From an uncultured Acidimicrobiales bacterium (lineage in GTDB: Bacteria; Actinomycetota; Acidimicrobiia; Acidimicrobiales; SHLQ01), in assembly GCA_938084885.1 (NCBI GenBank), contig CALKGG010000028.1, forward strand, positions 7,199 through 71,198: a stretch of DNA of 64,000 nt, in the 5' to 3' direction. The translations under genes and the position numbers were made by a program. Position 1 is the first letter of the stretch. Each line of letters starts with the position of its first letter. The notes beneath the pieces are model-generated. The model was given only the letters and a program-made list of their open reading frames with translations. It was not told the DNA's origin and ran no database searches. Positions 5,384-56,456 of the stretch are shown here, piece after piece.

Positions 5384-6300
5384 ACGACCTGCTCACCATT
5401 GAGGATCTCGGCGCCGACGGCATCAACGAGATCATGCTCACCGCCGACAGCATGGCCGAAGTCAGCGCTCGGCCCATCCCCAAAGTTCCCGCGCTACGTG
5501 GCAAGACCGTTGCGTCGATGTTCTTCGAAGACTCGACGAGAACGCGAACGTCGTTCGAAACCGCGGCCAAACGGCTGTCTGCCGATGTGCTCAACTTCAG
5601 CGCCTCATCATCGTCGGTTAACAAGGGCGAGTCCCTACGCGACACCGTCGAAACCATCGAAGCCATGGGCGTCGACGCCATCATTGTTCGGCATCGCTCC
5701 TCGGGTGCACCACGCCAAGTTGCCCAATGGGCCGAGGCGCCGGTGATCAACGCAGGCGATGGTTGGCACGCACACCCAACCCAGTCGCTTCTCGACGCCT
5801 ACACAATCCGTGCCGAAGGCCGCGACTTCGAAGGGCTCAATATCGCCATCGTGGGCGACGTCTCCCATAGTCGGGTCGCCCGCAGCAACATCGAAGCCTT
5901 CTCGGTGCTCGGCGCCAACGTCACACTCGTCGCACCACCAACGCTGCTCCCGCCTCACGTCGAAGCACTCGGGGCAACGGTCTCGCACAGCCTCGACGCC
6001 GTGCTCGCCGAAACCGACGTGCTGTACCTGCTTCGAATGCAGCACGAACGCATGGACCAAGCGTTGGTGCCCTCGCTTGGTGAATATCACCGAACCTTCG
6101 GCCTGACCCCCGAACGGGCAAAGCAACTACCGTCGAACGCGTTGATCATGCACCCCGGCCCGATGAACCGAGGAATCGAGATCTCGCCCGAGGTCATCGA
6201 TGATCCTCGGGTTCGGGTGCTCAACCAGGTCGCGAATGGTGTGGTTGTACGAATGGCCGTCCTCTATTTGGTCGTTGGATCGAACGGAGGGGTCATATGA
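5380..6300 (+). CDS. pyrB: Aspartate carbamoyltransferase catalytic subunit
   Basis: FFEDSTRTR, HPTQSLLD and MHPGPMNRG motifs. Confidence 0.97.
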   Translation: MNDLLTIEDLGADGINEIMLTADSMAEVSARPIPKVPALRGKTVASMFFEDSTRTRTSFETAAKRLSADVLNFSASSSSVNKGESLRDTVETIEAMGVDAIIVRHRSSGAPRQVAQWAEAPVINAGDGWHAHPTQSLLDAYTIRAEGRDFEGLNIAIVGDVSHSRVARSNIEAFSVLGANVTLVAPPTLLPPHVEALGATVSHSLDAVLAETDVLYLLRMQHERMDQALVPSLGEYHRTFGLTPERAKQLPSNALIMHPGPMNRGIEISPEVIDDPRVRVLNQVANGVVVRMAVLYLVVGSNGGVI

Positions 6301-19796: not shown

Positions 19797-21080
19797 CTAG
19801 GTCTCGTCGGGAGCGAAGTCGTCCCAGGTGGGCTGTTCTTCGAGGTCGGCGTTGGCAGCGGCGGTGGGCGGCAGGATCGATGCGGCGAGTGCAGTGGTCA
19901 GCGGGACCGCCCCGATGAGGCCGATCGAACCCGTTAGCGTCCGGACGATCTCGATGGCGATGACCTCAGAGTTCGCTACCTGCGACAGTGTTTGCTCCGA
20001 CGCCGCGAACAACAGCAGCAAAGGCAGGCTCGCACCGGCGTACGCCAACAACAGTGTGTTGACGGTGGCGGCGATGTGATCGCGGCCAACGGACAGCCCT
20101 GCGGCTATGAGACGGCTCGAGGACATCTCGGGGTTGCTGCGGCGAAGCTCGCTCACAAGCGACACCTGGGTGACCGTGACATCGTCGAGTGCACCCAACG
20201 CGCCGATGATGGCGCCACCCAAAAGGACCGAGCTGAGGCGAATGTCTTGACTGAGGATCGGAAGTACGAGCGCCTCGCTGCTCGCGAATCCGGTGAAGTT
20301 GGCGAGCTCGAAAAACACCGCTGACAGCACGAATGTCAACAACAGCGCGGAGATGGTTCCAGTAAGTGCAATCGCTGTCGTCGGGGTGAACCCGTGGGTG
20401 AGAAAAAGGCTGACGAACGCGATGATCGTCGCGGCCACGAGCGCGACGGCGACCGGGTCGTTGCCATCGAGGACCGAGGGCGCGACGTAGCCAACGAGCA
20501 CGAGGAGCGTGATGGACATTGCAAGCAGTGCCAGGAGGCCGCGGACCCGTCCGAAGACGACGACGATGATGGCGAACATGACCGCGAGGATGGCGAGCGG
20601 CGCTTGCCGTGCCTGATCTTCGTAGAAGTAGGTGTTTGTGCCGGGGATGAATCCGAGGACGACCTCATCGCCTGGGTCGAATTCTGGGACGTTGCGCTGG
20701 ATTTCTAGGTTGATCTCCGGTAGCGCGAGCACCGTTCCGGCGTCGGGGCCTTCGAGCACGTCGAGCACGAGTGAACGGCAGTCCTGGGGAAACTCGTTGG
20801 TTGCAAAACTGCATGGAGCGGTTTCAGACGAGACCACAGTAGCTGCAATACGCTGCGTGGACAGGCCAATCTCTTCGGCGGCGGCGATTGCCTCGGCCGT
20901 GCCCTCGCCCGTCGGCCATGTGAACGCAAGGCCAGTGAGAGCGCCGAACAGCGACACGCCAAGGAGCGCGAGAACGAGACGAAGTCGCGTCGATTGCAAC
21001 CAGTCGCCCCACCCGCCGTGGACGTCATCTCCATGTCCGTGGCCGTGCGCGTGGCTGTGTCCGTGTCCCATTCCGGCCAT
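19797..21080 (-). CDS. YibE/F family membrane protein with His-rich N-terminus
   Basis: IIGALGALDDVTVTQ, GRDHIAATVNTLLLAYAGASLPLL and EIVRTL.GSIGL motifs; start 21080 or 21071. Confidence 0.88.
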   Translation of the reverse strand: MAGMGHGHSHAHGHGHGDDVHGGWGDWLQSTRLRLVLALLGVSLFGALTGLAFTWPTGEGTAEAIAAAEEIGLSTQRIAATVVSSETAPCSFATNEFPQDCRSLVLDVLEGPDAGTVLALPEINLEIQRNVPEFDPGDEVVLGFIPGTNTYFYEDQARQAPLAILAVMFAIIVVVFGRVRGLLALLAMSITLLVLVGYVAPSVLDGNDPVAVALVAATIIAFVSLFLTHGFTPTTAIALTGTISALLLTFVLSAVFFELANFTGFASSEALVLPILSQDIRLSSVLLGGAIIGALGALDDVTVTQVSLVSELRRSNPEMSSSRLIAAGLSVGRDHIAATVNTLLLAYAGASLPLLLLFAASEQTLSQVANSEVIAIEIVRTLTGSIGLIGAVPLTTALAASILPPTAAANADLEEQPTWDDFAPDET

Positions 21081-50832: not shown

Positions 50833-50872
50833 TATGCATGAATATGCATTATTGTGAATAACCCGCTAAGGT
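50833..50872 (+). promoter_or_regulatory. ARG box(es) overlapping the arg operon promoter; -10 TAAGGT
   Basis: TGCATGAATATGCA at 50835-48 and a second half-site TGAATA 20 nt later; AT-rich patch; TAAGGT 50867-72 lies 7 nt before ATG 50880; argR is in the operon. Confidence 0.85.
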
Positions 50873-50879
50873 GCTGCGA

Positions 50880-51947
50880 ATGTCTTCTCAAACGAACGGC
50901 ACCGCTGCGCCCAAACGTGTGGGCGTGGTTGGAGCGTCAGGTTACACCGGCACAGAACTGCTCCGGTTAATCCACGGCCACCCGAGCCTAGAACTCGCAG
51001 TGGCCACTGGCGACTCCAAAGCTGGAACAAGAATCGCCGACCTCTACCCAAGCTTGGCCGCTGCGTATGGAGACCGAAAGTACGAGCCATTTTCTCCAGA
51101 GTTGGTCGATGGACTCGATCTTGTCTTTATCGGCCTCCCACACGGCATCTCAATGTCGGTCGTGCCCCAAATACGGGGCAAGGTGGGCCACATTGTCGAC
51201 CTCGGCTCAGATTTCCGCTTGCACGACAAAGCCCTCTACCCCGAGTGGTACAACGCCGAACACACCGCCCCCGACCTGCTCGACGAATTCGTGTACGGCC
51301 TGCCAGAGCTGTTTCGGGAGAAGATTTCGGGCGCAGAACTCATTGCGGCCACCGGATGCAATGCTGGAGCGTCGATCTTTGCGCTTGCGCCGCTGCTTAC
51401 GGCAGGCGCCATCGAGGGTGATGGCATAATCATCGATCTGATCACCGGGGTCAGCGGCGCTGGTCGCCCACCGAAGGAGAACACGACGTTCTGCACGGTC
51501 GACGAGAACGTCACTGCATATGCACTGTTGTCGCACCGGCACACCCCCGAGATCGAACAGGCGCTTCACGAGCGGACCGGAGTCGACACCACCGTGTTGT
51601 TCACGCCGCACCTTGCACCAATGAACCGAGGAATTATCTCGACGTGTTATGGCCGCCCGGCAAAGGATGGGTTGACGAGTGACGATGCGCTCCAGATTCT
51701 CGCCGACTTCTACGAGAACGAACCGTTCATGGTCGTCGACGAACGCAGTCCGTCAACAAAGGCAGTCACCGGATCCAACAGCGTGCACCTCACAGCACGC
51801 GTCGACCCACGAACAGGCCATGTCATGGTGATCTCGGTGCTCGACAACCTCATGAAGGGCGCCTCGGGCATGGCCGTACAGAACGCCAACCTCGCGCTTG
51901 GCCTCGACGAAACGCTTGGGCTGTCCTCGATTGGGGTCTACCCATGA
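50880..51947 (+). CDS. argC: N-acetyl-gamma-glutamyl-phosphate reductase
   Basis: GASGYTG, LPHG, DLGSDFR, GVSGAGR, HRHTPEI and DNLMKGASG motifs. Confidence 0.96.
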   Translation: MSSQTNGTAAPKRVGVVGASGYTGTELLRLIHGHPSLELAVATGDSKAGTRIADLYPSLAAAYGDRKYEPFSPELVDGLDLVFIGLPHGISMSVVPQIRGKVGHIVDLGSDFRLHDKALYPEWYNAEHTAPDLLDEFVYGLPELFREKISGAELIAATGCNAGASIFALAPLLTAGAIEGDGIIIDLITGVSGAGRPPKENTTFCTVDENVTAYALLSHRHTPEIEQALHERTGVDTTVLFTPHLAPMNRGIISTCYGRPAKDGLTSDDALQILADFYENEPFMVVDERSPSTKAVTGSNSVHLTARVDPRTGHVMVISVLDNLMKGASGMAVQNANLALGLDETLGLSSIGVYP

Positions 51948-53182
51948 GCGCTGTGTCCCCGCTCGCCCCAGCGAGCTTTCCCGAGCTTCCCCCGGTCGCT
52001 GGAGTGCAGCTGGCCACCTTCGAGGCTGGCCTTCGTTACCAGAATCGGGCCGATCTGATGCTCGCTCTGGTCGATGACGCCACCACTGTGGCTGGCGTGT
52101 TCACCACGTCGCTCTGTCCATCGGCACCGGTCGACTGGAGCCGGTCGATCCTCCAACGCGGCACTGCCCGGGCAATCGTCTGTAACAGCGGGAACGCAAA
52201 CGCGTTTACCGGCAAAGCAGGCGCAACATCGGCCGAGCTCACCGCCAAAACAATCGCCGCAGCCTTCGACATCGAACCCACGTCGGTGCACCTCGCATCG
52301 ACTGGCGTCATTGGTGAAACCCTGCCCGACGATCGCCTTGTTGGCGGCCTCGAGAACCTCGCCAACCAACTCGCTCCAGCAACAGCAGCGGGCTGGGAAG
52401 CCGCAGCCAACGCCATCCGAACAACCGATACCTTCGCGAAAGGAGCGTCGGCGACCGTCGACCTCGATGGCACGGCAATCACCGTAGTCGGCATTGCGAA
52501 GGGGAGCGGCATGATTGCTCCAGACATGGCGACCATGCTCGGCTTTGTCTTTACCGATGCCGCCGTTGCCCCCAACGTGCTGCAAACAATGCTGAGTGGA
52601 GCCGCAACCGCGTCGTACAACCGGATCACGGTCGATTCTGACACGTCGACGAGCGACTCGGTGTGGCTATTCGCCACCGGTGCGAGTGGCGCAGCGCCCA
52701 TTACGTCGGTCGATGACCAGCGCTACGGTCCACTCGCCGAAGCGGTCAGCGCAGTGAACCTCGACCTTGCCCATCAGATTGTTCGCGACGGTGAAGGCGC
52801 AACCAAGTTCGTCGAGATCACCGTGTCGGGAGCCGAGCACGATGAGGCTGCGTCGGCGATAGCCCTGTCCATTGCAAACTCGCCCCTCGTCAAGACCGCA
52901 CTCGCTGCCGAAGACGCCAACTGGGGTCGCATTGTCATGGCTGTTGGAAAGGCTGGACAACGAGCGAATCGTGATGCCCTCAAGATTTGGATCGGCGACG
53001 AGCTTGTTGCCGACCAAGGCGTACAGGTGCGTGGCTACTCGGAGGACCGAGCGACCGAGCACTTGAAGAACGATGAGGTCAAGATCAGCGTCGACGTCGG
53101 CATCGCAGATGGCACCGCAACCGTATGGACCTGCGACCTCACCCACGGATACATCGAAATCAACGCTGGATACCGATCATGA
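51944..53182 (+). CDS. argJ: Ornithine acetyltransferase / N-acetylglutamate synthase
   Basis: NSGNANAFTG, TTDT, KGSGMIAPDMATML autocleavage site, RDGEGATK and DANWGR motifs. Confidence 0.96.
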   Translation: MSAVSPLAPASFPELPPVAGVQLATFEAGLRYQNRADLMLALVDDATTVAGVFTTSLCPSAPVDWSRSILQRGTARAIVCNSGNANAFTGKAGATSAELTAKTIAAAFDIEPTSVHLASTGVIGETLPDDRLVGGLENLANQLAPATAAGWEAAANAIRTTDTFAKGASATVDLDGTAITVVGIAKGSGMIAPDMATMLGFVFTDAAVAPNVLQTMLSGAATASYNRITVDSDTSTSDSVWLFATGASGAAPITSVDDQRYGPLAEAVSAVNLDLAHQIVRDGEGATKFVEITVSGAEHDEAASAIALSIANSPLVKTALAAEDANWGRIVMAVGKAGQRANRDALKIWIGDELVADQGVQVRGYSEDRATEHLKNDEVKISVDVGIADGTATVWTCDLTHGYIEINAGYRS

Positions 53183-53280
53183 TAACTCTCAGAGCACTGC
53201 ACGTTTGGCGGAGCCAAAGGTGGTTAGTGAGCGAAGCGAACGGCGGATACATCGAAATCAACGGCGGGTACCGATCATGA
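53146..53280 (+). repeat. 37-bp direct repeat of the argJ 3' end (34/37 identical) flanking a 61-bp insert
   Basis: CGGATACATCGAAATCAACG-NN-GG-N-TACCGATCATGA at 53146-82 and 53244-80. Confidence 0.92.
53179..53280 (+). CDS. 33-aa mini-ORF coupling argJ to argB (MIRU-like element)
   Basis: MITLRALHVWRSQRWLVSEANGGYIEINGGYRS*; ATGA overlap at both ends. Confidence 0.6.
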   Translation: MITLRALHVWRSQRWLVSEANGGYIEINGGYRS

Positions 53281-54173
53281 ATGAACCGACCGCTCTAGAT
53301 GTTGCCGACCGCGGATTTGAACCGTCCCGTCGCGCCCAGTCGCTGATCGAAGCGCTGCCGTATATCGAGCGCTTTCGGGGTGCGATCGTCGTCGTGAAAT
53401 TCGGGGGCAACGCCATGGTCGACCCCGACCTCAGCCGCACGTTTGCTGAAGACATTGTCCTCTTACGCTCGGTTGGCTTGAAGCCCGTTGTCGTCCACGG
53501 TGGCGGCCCGCAGATCGGTGAGATGCTCGACAAGCTCGGCAAAGAAACCGAGTTTCGAGAAGGTCTGCGAGTGACCGACGCCGAAACCCTCGACGTTGCC
53601 CGCATGGTGCTCGTTGGCAAGGTCGGCCGTGACATCGTCGGCGCAATCAATGTGCACGGCGCCTACGCCGTTGGCTTGTCGGGCGAAGACGGCGGCCTTA
53701 TCCGAGCATCGGCGCGCGATCCCGAGCTTGGTTTTGTCGGCAACATCGAGTCGGTCAACCCGAACATTGTCGAACGCCTCCTCGCCGAAGAGCTGATCCC
53801 GGTCATCTCGACGATTGGGTCCGACGCATTTGGGCAGGCCTACAACATCAACGCCGACACTGTCGCCGGTGCGCTCGCCGGTGCGCTGCGTGCCGAAAAG
53901 GCCGTCTATCTCACCGATGTTCCGGGTCTGCTCGCCGACGTTGATGATCCAGCAAGCCTCATTGCGCAGTCGACAGTGCCCGAACTCAACGCACTCATCG
54001 ACGACGGAACGATCGCCGGGGGGATGATCCCGAAGGTCGGCGCGTGCATCCACGCCGTCGAATCGGGCGCGACCGCCGCACATATGCTCGACGGGCGAGT
54101 ACCGCACGTCCTGCTGCTTGAACTCTTCACCGATGCGGGCATCGGAACAAAGATCACCCTTGGAGTCACATGA
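53277..54173 (+). CDS. argB: Acetylglutamate kinase
   Basis: VVKFGGNAM, VHGGGPQI, GLRVTD, NINAD and GGMIPK motifs. Confidence 0.96.
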   Translation: MNEPTALDVADRGFEPSRRAQSLIEALPYIERFRGAIVVVKFGGNAMVDPDLSRTFAEDIVLLRSVGLKPVVVHGGGPQIGEMLDKLGKETEFREGLRVTDAETLDVARMVLVGKVGRDIVGAINVHGAYAVGLSGEDGGLIRASARDPELGFVGNIESVNPNIVERLLAEELIPVISTIGSDAFGQAYNINADTVAGALAGALRAEKAVYLTDVPGLLADVDDPASLIAQSTVPELNALIDDGTIAGGMIPKVGACIHAVESGATAAHMLDGRVPHVLLLELFTDAGIGTKITLGVT

Positions 54174-55450
54174 GTACCACCGTCCACACCGAAGCAGTGA
54201 ATGCCGGACCGGCACTCAGTTTCTGTCCAATGATGTCGAACTACGGCGCGCCATCACTCACTCTTGTCAAAGGCGAAGGTACCGAGGTCTGGGATGACCA
54301 AGGCCGTCGATACCTCGATTTCTTGTGCGGGCTTGCGGTCACAAGCCTGGGGCACAGCCACCCGGTAGTCACCGAAGCAATTCGTAACCAAGCAGGCACG
54401 CTCATGCACGTGAGCAACCTGTACAACACGCTTCCGGGGCCAGAAGTGGCGATCACACTCGATCGGCTGTTGCAAACCTTCAGCAGCGCTGCTGTTACAC
54501 GGGCCGCCGACCCGACCGTGGTGACCGAGTCGCCGCGCAGCCAACGCGGCCAGGTCTTGTTCCAGAACTCGGGCGCCGAAGCCAACGAAGCAGCCATCAA
54601 GATTGCTCGCAAATACAACGGTCGAGGTCGCCACGTGGTGCTGTCGGCGTTGCGCAGTTTCCACGGTCGGACGCTTGCCACGCTGCACGCCACCGGCCAA
54701 CCCGAAAAGCACGAGGCGTTCGCTCCGCTTCCAGAGGGATTTCGCCACGCGGCCTACAACGATGTCGAGGCGATGGAAGCAGCGCTCGATCCGAGCGTCG
54801 GCGCAATCATCGTGGAGGCCATCCAAGGCGAAGGCGGCGTAAACACTCCCGATGCTGGCTATCTCAACGACCTGCGGGCGCTCTGCGACGACCGGCAGCT
54901 GCTCTTGATCCTCGACGAGATCCAGACCGGCGTTGCTCGGACCGGCGAGTGGTTCGCGTTTCAACACGACGCGGTCATGCCCGACATTGTCACCATGGCC
55001 AAGGGCCTCGGAAACGGCATGCCGATTGGTGCAGTGTGGGCCAAACGAGAGGTTGCTGAAGCCCTCAAGCCCGGCGACCACGGCTCGACGTTCGCGGGAG
55101 GCCCGCTTGCAGCGGCTGCAGCACGAGCAACACTTTCGGTGATGGAGCAGATGGATGCGCCTGCGGTTGCGACCCAAAAGGGAGCCGAGCTCACCAGTGC
55201 GCTTCTGGCCCTCGACGGCGTTGCGACAGTCCGGGGTAAGGGGATGCTGCTCGCGGCAGAACTGACTACCGATGGCCTTCGTGGTCGTACCGGCGGTGAA
55301 GTGTCGGCGGCGATCGCCGCGAACGGCGTTCTCACCAACGGCGTGACGGCGACATCGATCCGGTTCGCCCCACCGCTCACCGTGTCGTCGGGCGAGATCG
55401 AAGAAGCGATCCACAAGATCGACGCCGCCTTGAAGGGAGCGCAACTATGA
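54170..55450 (+). CDS. argD: Acetylornithine aminotransferase
   Basis: NSGAEANE, FHGRT, DEIQTG, AKGLGNG and HGSTFAG motifs. Confidence 0.94.
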   Translation: MSTTVHTEAVNAGPALSFCPMMSNYGAPSLTLVKGEGTEVWDDQGRRYLDFLCGLAVTSLGHSHPVVTEAIRNQAGTLMHVSNLYNTLPGPEVAITLDRLLQTFSSAAVTRAADPTVVTESPRSQRGQVLFQNSGAEANEAAIKIARKYNGRGRHVVLSALRSFHGRTLATLHATGQPEKHEAFAPLPEGFRHAAYNDVEAMEAALDPSVGAIIVEAIQGEGGVNTPDAGYLNDLRALCDDRQLLLILDEIQTGVARTGEWFAFQHDAVMPDIVTMAKGLGNGMPIGAVWAKREVAEALKPGDHGSTFAGGPLAAAAARATLSVMEQMDAPAVATQKGAELTSALLALDGVATVRGKGMLLAAELTTDGLRGRTGGEVSAAIAANGVLTNGVTATSIRFAPPLTVSSGEIEEAIHKIDAALKGAQL

Positions 55451-56340
55451 GACACCTGCTCGAAATCGATGATCTGACCGGCGACGAACTCGTACACGTG
55501 CTCGAACTCGCGCAAACGAGCACCCCACCGCAGGTCTTGTCGGGCAAAGGCATGGCGCTCGTGTTCGAAAAGCCGAGCCTGCGCACTCGCAACAGTATGG
55601 AGATGGCCGTCTTTCAGCTCGGCGGGCACCCCGTGTACATCCAAAGCAATGAAATTGGACTCGATACCCGAGAGTCGGTCGAGGACGTCACCAACACACT
55701 CGCCGGATTCCACGCTGCGATTGGGGCTCGCGTGTTCGAACATTCAAAGGTTGAACGTATGGCAGCGGTCGACAGAATCCCGATCGTCAACTTGCTCAGC
55801 GACGCAGCACATCCAATGCAGGCGTTGGCCGACGTGCTCACCATCATCGATGAGTTCGGGTCGGTTGAAGGACGAGTCGTCACCTACGTTGGCGATTCGA
55901 ACAATGTCACCCGGTCACTGGGCCTTGCTGTTGGCATGCTCGGTGGCATCTTTCGGATTGCATCGCCGATCGACTACAGCTTTGGCGAGGATGACCTCGC
56001 TCGACTGCGTTCTGCGGGGGGAGTGGTCGAGACGATGACCAACCCATACGAAGCAGTCGAGGGATGCGACGTTGTGTACAGCGATGTCTTTACCTCGATG
56101 GGCCAAGAGGCCGAAACCGACATTCGGTTGCGAGCGTTTGCCGACTATCAGATCAACGAATCGCTAATGGCGGCCGCTGGAGACGCTGTGTTCTTACATT
56201 GTTTGCCTGCGCACCGTGGCGAAGAGGTCACGAGCAACGTCGTCGACAGCCCCGCGAGCCGGGTCTGGAAGCTGGCCGAAAACCGTATGCACGCCGCCCG
56301 CGGCTATCTCGCGTTTGTTATCGGAGAATCAGAACTGTGA
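55447..56340 (+). CDS. argF: Ornithine carbamoyltransferase
   Basis: FEKPSLRTR, HPMQALAD, SMGQE and HCLPAHRG motifs. Confidence 0.95.
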   Translation: MRHLLEIDDLTGDELVHVLELAQTSTPPQVLSGKGMALVFEKPSLRTRNSMEMAVFQLGGHPVYIQSNEIGLDTRESVEDVTNTLAGFHAAIGARVFEHSKVERMAAVDRIPIVNLLSDAAHPMQALADVLTIIDEFGSVEGRVVTYVGDSNNVTRSLGLAVGMLGGIFRIASPIDYSFGEDDLARLRSAGGVVETMTNPYEAVEGCDVVYSDVFTSMGQEAETDIRLRAFADYQINESLMAAAGDAVFLHCLPAHRGEEVTSNVVDSPASRVWKLAENRMHAARGYLAFVIGESEL

Positions 56341-56456
56341 CCTTGGGTAGCCCGGAGGGACCGAGGGCGGAAATGGGCCTCTGGCCAGCAGCGGAGCATC
56401 GAGGAGCGCAGCGACAGATTGTGAACGCTGGAGCGACGAAGGAGCGGGACGTATGA
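56337..56456 (+). CDS. 39-aa mini-ORF coupling argF to argR (MIRU-like element)
   Basis: GTGA overlap with the argF stop and ATGA overlap with the argR start; (V/M)TLGSPEGPRAEMGLWPAAEHRGAQRQIVNAGATKERDV*. Confidence 0.6.
   Translation: MTLGSPEGPRAEMGLWPAAEHRGAQRQIVNAGATKERDV

Follow-up and report, generated by a model that had tools for sequence, protein, structure and literature searches.

The repeats closest to the one described here are MIRUs (mycobacterial interspersed repetitive units), which lie in the same orientation as the genes that flank them, and the repetitive extragenic palindromes (REPs), which belong with the concept of the bacterial interspersed mosaic element (BIME) and are linked to REP-associated tyrosine transposases (RAYTs, Y1 transposases). 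Here we examine the window, a 64,000-nt stretch of contig CALKGG010000028.1 (assembly GCA_938084885.1) from an uncultured Acidimicrobiales bacterium, in which a 98-nt unit holding a 33-codon mini-ORF (ORF, open reading frame) separates argJ from argB. The explanation that we favour overall, with a probability of about 0.8, is that a copy of a dispersed repeat at the argJ/argB overlap has been kept as a readable relay frame that preserves coupling between the two genes. In the passages of one review that deal with MIRUs, these are units of 40–100 bp with tens of copies, a location in operons, overlapping ORFs, GC-rich inverted repeats and tetranucleotide direct repeats (PMC3184786), and passages of a second review, from 2025, ascribe to them a ribosome handover that keeps the downstream gene translated (PMC12548453).

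The element in the window appears to combine a REP/BIME-like build with MIRU-like behaviour, the latter a design known from mycobacteria. Its unit of about 58 nt falls within the MIRU range; it is dispersed and forms tandem arrays, with only two full copies in the genome of the window itself; it sits between operon genes, where a small ORF overlaps both neighbours by −4 nt (at argJ–argB and in five orthologues); it has internal GC-rich inverted repeats; and filled and empty sites coexist among relatives. The likeness to MIRUs, first drawn in the original prediction, which a model made from the letters of the window, agrees with what the two reviews state in those passages. The features of the junction, numbered from the first letter of the window, are the following.

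51944–53182, plus strand: argJ (ornithine acetyltransferase; ORF table), with its stop within the ATGA at 53179–53182; Pfam ArgJ (PF01960), 455.5 bits
53146–53182, plus strand: repeat copy 1, formed by the terminal 37 nt of argJ with its stop (direct-repeat search)
53179–53280, plus strand: 33-codon mini-ORF, whose ATG overlaps the argJ stop and whose TGA overlaps the argB ATG (ORF table)
53183–53199, plus strand: variable spacer from the first ATGA to the element, differing among relatives (junction sequences compared)
53196–53246, plus strand: match to covariance model R1 (hairpin and core), on the own contig C28:60394–60444; 42 bits, E = 4.6e-8
53200–53222, plus strand: conserved hairpin CAC.TTTGGC-GGA-GCCAAA.GTG (RNAfold; covariation)
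53222–53243, plus strand: family core GGTTAGTGAGCGAAGCGAACGG (pattern searches), including GCGAAGC at 53231–53237
53244–53264, plus strand: 21-nt extension, lying between AACGGCGG at 53239–53246 and AACGGCGG at 53260–53267 (own genome compared with L010–L012)
53244–53280, plus strand: repeat copy 2, the rebuilt argJ end, in which the argB start keeps its native context from −15 to −1
53277–54173, plus strand: argB (acetylglutamate kinase; ORF table); Pfam AA_kinase, 159.5 bits

In the ORF table the operon runs argC–argJ–mini-ORF–argB–argD–argF, with an ATGA overlap at each junction, and the mini-ORF reads MITLRALHVWRSQRWLVSEANGGYIEINGGYRS. The direct-repeat search returned a single 37-nt repeat (53146–53182 against 53244–53280; 34/37 identical, 92%; spacing 98), and local alignment of the two flanks of the insert scored z = 22.6 against 60 shuffles. 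Together with TTTGGC-GGA-GCCAAA at 53204–53218, GCGAAGC at 53231–53237 and the ATGA motifs at 53179–53182 and 53277–53280, these features lie exactly where the original prediction had placed them.

Two repeat copies misjoined in a metagenome bin could give the same layout, and sequencing run X1 speaks for such an artefact: no single contig bridges the whole unit in that run, and a 599-nt Logan contig tracks argJ to 53165 and then carries nine letters that follow copy 2, joining sequence upstream of copy 1 to letters after copy 2. In run X2, by contrast, a 128-nt Logan contig covers 53146–53273 with 3 differences, and in run X3, from another study, a 157-nt contig covers 53138–53286 with 12 differences; both are gapless and span the two copies and the insert. 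The same layout recurs in five other assemblies, which makes six separate genome assemblies in all. Because the six assemblies agree and the X2 and X3 contigs span both copies, mis-assembly is very unlikely. The X1 contig is a weak hint of a deletion allele in that sample, from which the 98-nt unit is absent, or of a converted copy 1.

We compared 24 argJ–argB junctions, namely that of the own genome, 22 from the genus and one from another family; L026, whose contig lacks argJ, and L034–L038, from other families in which ArgJ is about 38–43% identical or missing, were left out. The full element occupies the identical place in six junctions (L009, which is the own genome, L010, L011, L012, L014 and L016), and ten are direct ATGA or GTGA overlaps, that is, empty sites, in line with the predicted insertion at an ATGA junction. 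L015 retains a deleted remnant, consisting of the last 14 nt of the core and the duplicate, and L013 carries a different insert that bears the GAGCGAAGCGAA motif and is in frame with argB. Mini-ORFs that lack the element, 14 and 23 nt long from ATGA to ATGA, are found in L017 and L025, and in L018, L019, L020 and L033 the stop and the start do not overlap and are separated by a short spacer with a purine-rich run.

The argJ–argB insert is a resident copy of a small non-coding interspersed repeat that belongs to one family-level lineage of the Acidimicrobiales. When 40 relatives were searched with a 1-kb junction query, the middle of the insert (window ~53195–53250) recurred at unrelated loci in nine other genomes, and a second 25-nt match was present in the own genome on contig C74. 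With up to three mismatches allowed, the 22-nt core had 237 matches in 23 of 26 genus genomes (0–24 per genome), and a reversed control pattern had none in the same 26; model R1 had 435 matches at E ≤ 0.001 in 25 of the 26 (0–39 per genome). Aligned copies define a unit of about 58 nt, in which a 13-bp hairpin, CGA(T)GTTTCGAGCC-loop-GGCGAGAAACTCG, is followed directly by the core. TAG TGA closes one of its sense frames and TAA one antisense frame, and the remaining four frames are open. The two full R1 copies of the own genome lie at argJ–argB and at C74:14946–15004; elsewhere in this genome the hairpin is joined to other tails (C19, C101) or followed by a second hairpin (C91, C17, C13, C132), and because it combines with different tails, the family is a BIME-like mosaic. 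Tandem arrays have periods of 51–95 nt, and one closed chromosome of a metagenome-assembled genome (MAG) has an array of 15 exact-core matches with a period of 52 nt. With the tail GGTTCGAACGAAGTTCGATACG, the hairpin also stands in tandem beside sequences that resemble tRNA ends when judged by eye (C19:12454–12502, C101:75–207, L064 and L123).

These results bear on the alternative that the original prediction had set against itself, a neutral local tandem duplication of the argJ/argB junction that involves no mobile or repeated element. Small duplications do arise readily at this junction: the argB start is duplicated over 14 nt in L017, 9 nt are duplicated in L014, and L019 (G010) and L020 (G024) repeat in tandem the stretch that codes for TAQD at the argB N terminus, with a run of N in L019, which makes the argB start a hot spot for such events. 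Against a purely local duplication, the 50-nt middle of the insert is found at hundreds of unrelated loci, is dissimilar to the argJ sequence upstream of the repeat and has compensatory changes in its hairpin, and we regard this alternative as highly improbable.

The first hairpin is real by covariation, both in the family and among the arg orthologues. Across 24 family copies, 85.6% of cells form standard pairs, compared with 72.2% in shuffled alignments (0/500 as high) and about 40% when partners are offset by one column; both sides have changed in 7 of 13 pairs, and a 43-copy, model-fitted alignment agrees. The arg orthologues show the paired changes TTTGGC/GCCAAA, TTCGGC/GCCGAA and TTCGAC/GTCGAA, and 96.7% of cells pair in the six arg copies, with 6 of 12 pairs changed on both sides, in an alignment that was fitted to the model and is thereby biased towards structure. 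The GNA triloop described for this hairpin in the original prediction is special to the arg copies; across the family, the loops are mostly 4–6 nt. At core position 13 (window 53234), 39 distinct copies have A 32 times, G 4 times and C twice, and T also occurs. This middle base of GC-GAA-GC, one of the most variable positions in an otherwise almost fixed core, is compatible with a GNA-triloop mini-hairpin.

The range of the family was assessed by an exact-core scan of one genome per species (185,579 species), which gave 81 stretches. Among the 80 listed, 65 were titled Acidimicrobiales or Acidimicrobiaceae, 2 Actinomycetota and 5 'uncultured bacterium', and 8 had other names, all labels being as recorded. 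Among 151 genomes sampled evenly across the order and searched with up to two mismatches, only six had the core: all three genomes of the window's own family and one in each of three other families. Rfam gave no match to window 52900–53500 at E ≤ 10, and no account of such a repeat family in Acidimicrobiia was found in open-access papers and preprints, as the original prediction had supposed.

The reading frame across the insert is conserved through indels. From ATGA to ATGA, the six full inserts span 98, 74, 77, 77, 83 and 83 nt; each is open and terminates on the argB ATG, so that the five relatives have orthologous open mini-ORFs of 25–28 codons, in agreement with the predicted frame-keeping length. 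By eye, the length differences between junction sequences trace to spacers of 17, 20 and 26 nt, the 9-nt duplication in L014 and the 21-nt tract of the window, and spacer lengths (17–26 nt) are all equal modulo 3 once a pair of changes in L011 is counted. Compared with L012, L011 has lost one base in the spacer and gained one in the 3′ arm of the hairpin, which restores the frame and alters the peptide between them, so that L011 reads CKFGAAD across the hairpin where the others read RVWRSQ or RVRRSR. This compensating −1/+1 pair therefore speaks for selection on the frame, and against such selection on the peptide in that stretch. It also bears on whether the mini-ORF encodes a functional micropeptide or a leader peptide that senses arginine, as RVRRSRT across the hairpin of several orthologues might suggest. 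Four of the six mini-ORFs have 5–7 Arg codons in an operon whose product is arginine, and their C-terminal (G/S)YRS is kept with synonymous changes only. However, the peptide that L011 reads from the hairpin in another frame has no Arg, the window copy has just two Arg codons in this stretch, the mini-ORFs are unrelated among species in their N-terminal parts, and the conserved WLVSEANG follows from conservation of the DNA core, read at other loci in different frames or antisense. We consider a peptide function very unlikely.

To place the arg copies within the family, 81 loci were picked by exact core, which favours well-kept copies, and 78 distinct sites, from 100-odd loci, were placed relative to called genes. 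All context counts depend on the gene calls, which came from a home-made log-odds model of codon usage, for which 659 long ORFs of the own genome served as training set; this model replaced an earlier caller, based on GC content at third codon positions (GC3), that had missed argJ and argB. Between co-directional genes the core is antisense at 27 sites and sense at 17; the remaining contexts are convergent (15), divergent (5), within the boundary of a long open frame (9) and undecided (5). A gene end faces the core end at 42 sites; the intervening gap is very often 1–5 nt, or the core supplies a TAA stop. We called a mini-ORF a strict relay when its start overlaps the stop of a frame of at least 70 codons, its frame spans the whole element or array and its stop overlaps a start that opens at least 70 codons. 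Eleven of the 78 sites qualify, at five loci: argJ–argB (5 rows), nuoD–nuoE with the element antisense (three species), nuoD–nuoE with the element sense (L144), soxD–soxA (L049) and L137, a junction between unnamed genes; NuoD, NuoE and SoxD are supported by Pfam. One antisense nuoD–nuoE carrier has three tandem 51-nt units of 17 codons each. The original prediction was thus too narrow in tying the family to stop/start overlaps, since its copies occur in both orientations, mostly just behind stops, and also in arrays and beside tRNA-like sequences. A looser relay definition, any start over any stop, gave 32 rows in the 78 sites and was rejected; many of these rows were wrongly oriented because TCATGA is a palindrome. 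A metagenome scan for the core end, nine free bases and TCATGA gave no stretches. Flanking direct repeats were significant at only 11 of the 78 sites, four of which are the arg and nuoD cases and the rest composite modules or arrays.

Two sites in the own genome are observations in their own right. At its nuoD–nuoE junction (C38:4529–4618), a 29-codon frame runs from the GTGA at the nuoD stop to the ATGA at the nuoE start, and the modules there are an antisense second hairpin and part of the main hairpin, without the 22-nt core. The copy at C74:14946–15004 (L069, L086) lies antisense, 7 nt inside a gene start, and the 8-codon frame MAAVRSAH ends on its TAA; in G017 and G024 the orthologous sites are free of the element, and the flanks are not duplicated.

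Consistent with these data, we propose the following course for argJ–argB. The element would have landed at the ATGA overlap and probably within argB, a few bases from its 5′ end, with duplication of the junction. This would leave argJ intact and turn the former argB start into the opening of a short frame that passes through the element in one of its two open frames and ends on a second ATGA, within a copy of the native upstream context of argB. Ribosomes ending argJ would restart at the overlapping ATG, translate 33 codons, melting the hairpin en route, terminate at the second ATGA and restart on argB. With restarts at both ATGA motifs, operon coupling would be retained despite the 98 extra bases.

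Several observations weigh against this explanation. Coupling at argJ–argB is not indispensable, as four relatives use a stop, a spacer and a Shine–Dalgarno-like run. Relay frames are, by the count given above, a minority state of the family. The arg inserts are related by descent, so that independent indel events number fewer than six. RNA of the whole 102-nt mini-ORF folds no better than shuffles (z = −0.13), and it is therefore covariation only that argues for the hairpin. That the spacer is a decayed argB 5′ end is a tentative reading: local alignment of each spacer with the argB 5′ end of the same species gave shuffle p values of 0.04, 0.38, 0.49, 0.51, 0.67 and 0.99, non-significant in five of six species, and the reading leans on L016 compared with L023, L010 compared with L017 and one 22-nt alignment (z = 5.1). 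Translational coupling itself is suggested by anatomy and conservation only, and among RNA runs in which the stretch was sought, none was listed as containing it. As for a mobilising enzyme, PF01797 (Y1 transposase) occurs in 23 of the 26 genus genomes, but only one of ten Y1 loci checked has an R1 match within about 1.5–2 kb. There a full element precedes the matched Y1 domain, 119 nt upstream of it; the remaining matches are weak, and by eye R1 copy numbers do not track Y1 gene numbers.

With regard to origin only, since the relay would function equally in either case, the arg copy may have arrived by recombination or template switching and not by transposition. A strand would have left just inside argB, copied an element elsewhere and returned upstream at a microhomology, creating the junction duplication; in a variant of this path, the arg allele of a diverged relative was taken up. 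Flanking duplications are absent at 67 of the 78 sites and are therefore no signature of the normal spread of the family. Read by eye, element and target meet at a short shared run in both sense cases that have a rebuilt 3′ end (AACG.C at arg, GGC at nuoD), although microhomologies of 3–5 nt are weak evidence. The two copies of the NuoD end in L144 differ at 8 of 42 nt, all synonymously, as expected from two diverged functional alleles, which indicates template switching or homology-anchored illegitimate recombination. On a tree of ArgJ and ArgB, built without the columns of the junction itself, the carrier state requires 7 changes for 7 carriers, and an approximately unbiased (AU) test rejects a single carrier clade (p = 6.8e-5). 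This tree, together with the near identity of the sisters L016 (filled) and L023 (empty), calls for repeated gains, repeated losses or lateral exchange. On the other hand, no donor sequence was identified, and the arg copies have in common the right-hand joint ...GCGAACGGC followed by G/A-G-G/C TAC... and a short stem of 9–10 bp with a GNA triloop and no bulge, a combination that also fits one old insertion. We take arrival by recombination or template switching as a serious contender, at somewhat less than even odds. Because all arg copies share the right-hand joint and the hairpin subtype, we lean to one old insertion, with later losses via the direct repeats.

Within the repeat-relay explanation, the length of the duplication proved to be peculiar to the window and not, as had been proposed, a trait of the element. 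Relatives duplicate only the last four argJ codons and the stop, about 15 nt, and the 37 nt of the window stem from the extra 21 bases at 53244–53264, which equal argJ 53146–53165 plus one base, lie between the AACGGCGG repeats and occur, among the 24 junctions, only in the own genome. All three positions at which the 37-nt copies differ fall in the part common with relatives, and two of them produce the GGC codon with which the element closes in all species. The extension is most simply explained as a secondary event, in which a short patch passed from copy 1 to copy 2 by misaligned repair or replication; less simply, an old 37-nt duplicate may have been shortened in the relatives by slippage between the two AACGGCGG tracts. 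The X3 contig, 92% identical and from another study, has the same length, so that the extension is not entirely recent.

The rebuilt gene end itself matches the true one at the protein level. Over the six arg species, copy 1 and copy 2 differ in their last four codons at 8 bases, all synonymous, and both copies have Ser in the L014/L016 clade where others have Gly. In L144 (reverse strand, ~6020–6180, of another Acidimicrobiales MAG), the 14 terminal nuoD codons recur after a sense element at nuoD–nuoE, and the mini-ORF ends IISSVDPILGEVDR as NuoD does. Over the six arg carriers and this independent nuoD–nuoE carrier, all 16 bases that differ between the duplicate and the true gene end are synonymous. 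It is conceivable, although we think it unlikely, that the rebuilt C terminus is not a passive scar and that the last codons before a stop/start overlap are themselves under selection. If selection, and not gene conversion or allele capture, were the cause, restart at ATGA would depend on the last decoded codons or on the end of the nascent peptide, and the repeat family would be a natural portable relay cassette, tolerated only when it copies that end signal.

The same data set the element apart from described repeats. Membership in the MIRUs fails on sequence family, orientation rule and repeat length. The element has a core sequence of its own and belongs to another phylogenetic class; among the 80 listed exact-core records none has a Mycobacterium title, a weak test because records were compared by title. 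It occurs in both orientations (27 antisense and 17 sense at co-directional sites), and only 11 of 78 copies form relay ORFs. MIRU filled sites have tetranucleotide repeats in the review passages cited above, whereas the element duplicates about 15 nt in relatives, 37 nt in the window and 42 nt in L144, ATGA itself bounds the argJ–argB insert, and most sites of the family have no flanking repeat. With the REPs of enterobacteria and pseudomonads, described in passages of the same review as short GC-rich imperfect palindromes that are extragenic, often right behind a stop, and found within operons (PMC3184786), the element shares these properties and also its use of either orientation, a hairpin with various tail modules, as in BIMEs, and, mostly, the lack of a target duplication. 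As to the transposase associated with REPs, no Y1 gene flanked by the element was found among the ten Y1 loci, one of which has a copy nearby; the element differs from REPs in that its hairpin precedes a conserved 22-nt core, predicted to be unpaired, and that some copies appear to be kept as relay frames. REP2 of Neisseria and IR of Borrelia are likewise small repeats that, in passages of that review, give a downstream gene its ribosome-binding site, ATG and open frame, but they carry a promoter and lie upstream of genes (PMC3184786); in the element neither a promoter nor a start codon of its own is evident, and it takes over the start codon present at its target. It differs from miniature inverted-repeat transposable elements (MITEs), which have terminal inverted repeats and a short target-site duplication of fixed length, in having an internal inverted repeat followed by an unpaired core, and in lacking flanking repeats at 67 of the 78 sites.

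The core of the original prediction was right, and its generalisation too narrow. Under the relay explanation, the idea developed for MIRUs would extend to a distant, uncultured marine lineage with an unrelated element, where a repeat is tolerated in an operon by carrying ribosomes across. The comparative evidence that selection keeps the frame and not the peptide is unusually clean, combining the compensating −1/+1 pair, an array period that is a multiple of three and frames kept open in both orientations. The filled, empty, remnant and spacer states across 24 genomes form a natural series for gauging the weight of termination–reinitiation in setting enzyme ratios. For annotation, junction ORFs of 25–60 codons in these genomes would be repeat-borne relay frames and not genes, and the repeat may supply gene ends or starts.

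The neighbours of the junction, of which the ArgC-, ArgD-, ArgF- and ArgR-type products are supported by Pfam, include a further relay frame.

50871–51947, plus strand: argC (ORF table)
54170–55450, plus strand: argD (ORF table)
55447–56340, plus strand: argF (ORF table)
56337–56456, plus strand: second relay mini-ORF, 39 codons, from the GTGA at the argF stop to the ATGA at the argR start; a different dispersed repeat

The gene downstream of this second mini-ORF matches Pfam Arg_repressor. The middle of the repeat (~56355–56449) has dozens of matches at unrelated loci in relatives and no second copy in the own genome, and a GAGCGAAGCGA motif is common to it and the argJ–argB element. Across the genus, the argF–argR junction is either empty, with an ATGA, GTGA or TGATG overlap, or filled, in sense or antisense orientation; the insert of L193 comes after a ATGAGCAAG start that is duplicated. 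A genome-wide relay scan also returned, on the minus strand of C66 at ~20790–20919, a 43-codon ATGA-to-ATGA frame made of about 4.5 tandem copies of the 15-nt sequence AACGCTGTGACCTCG.

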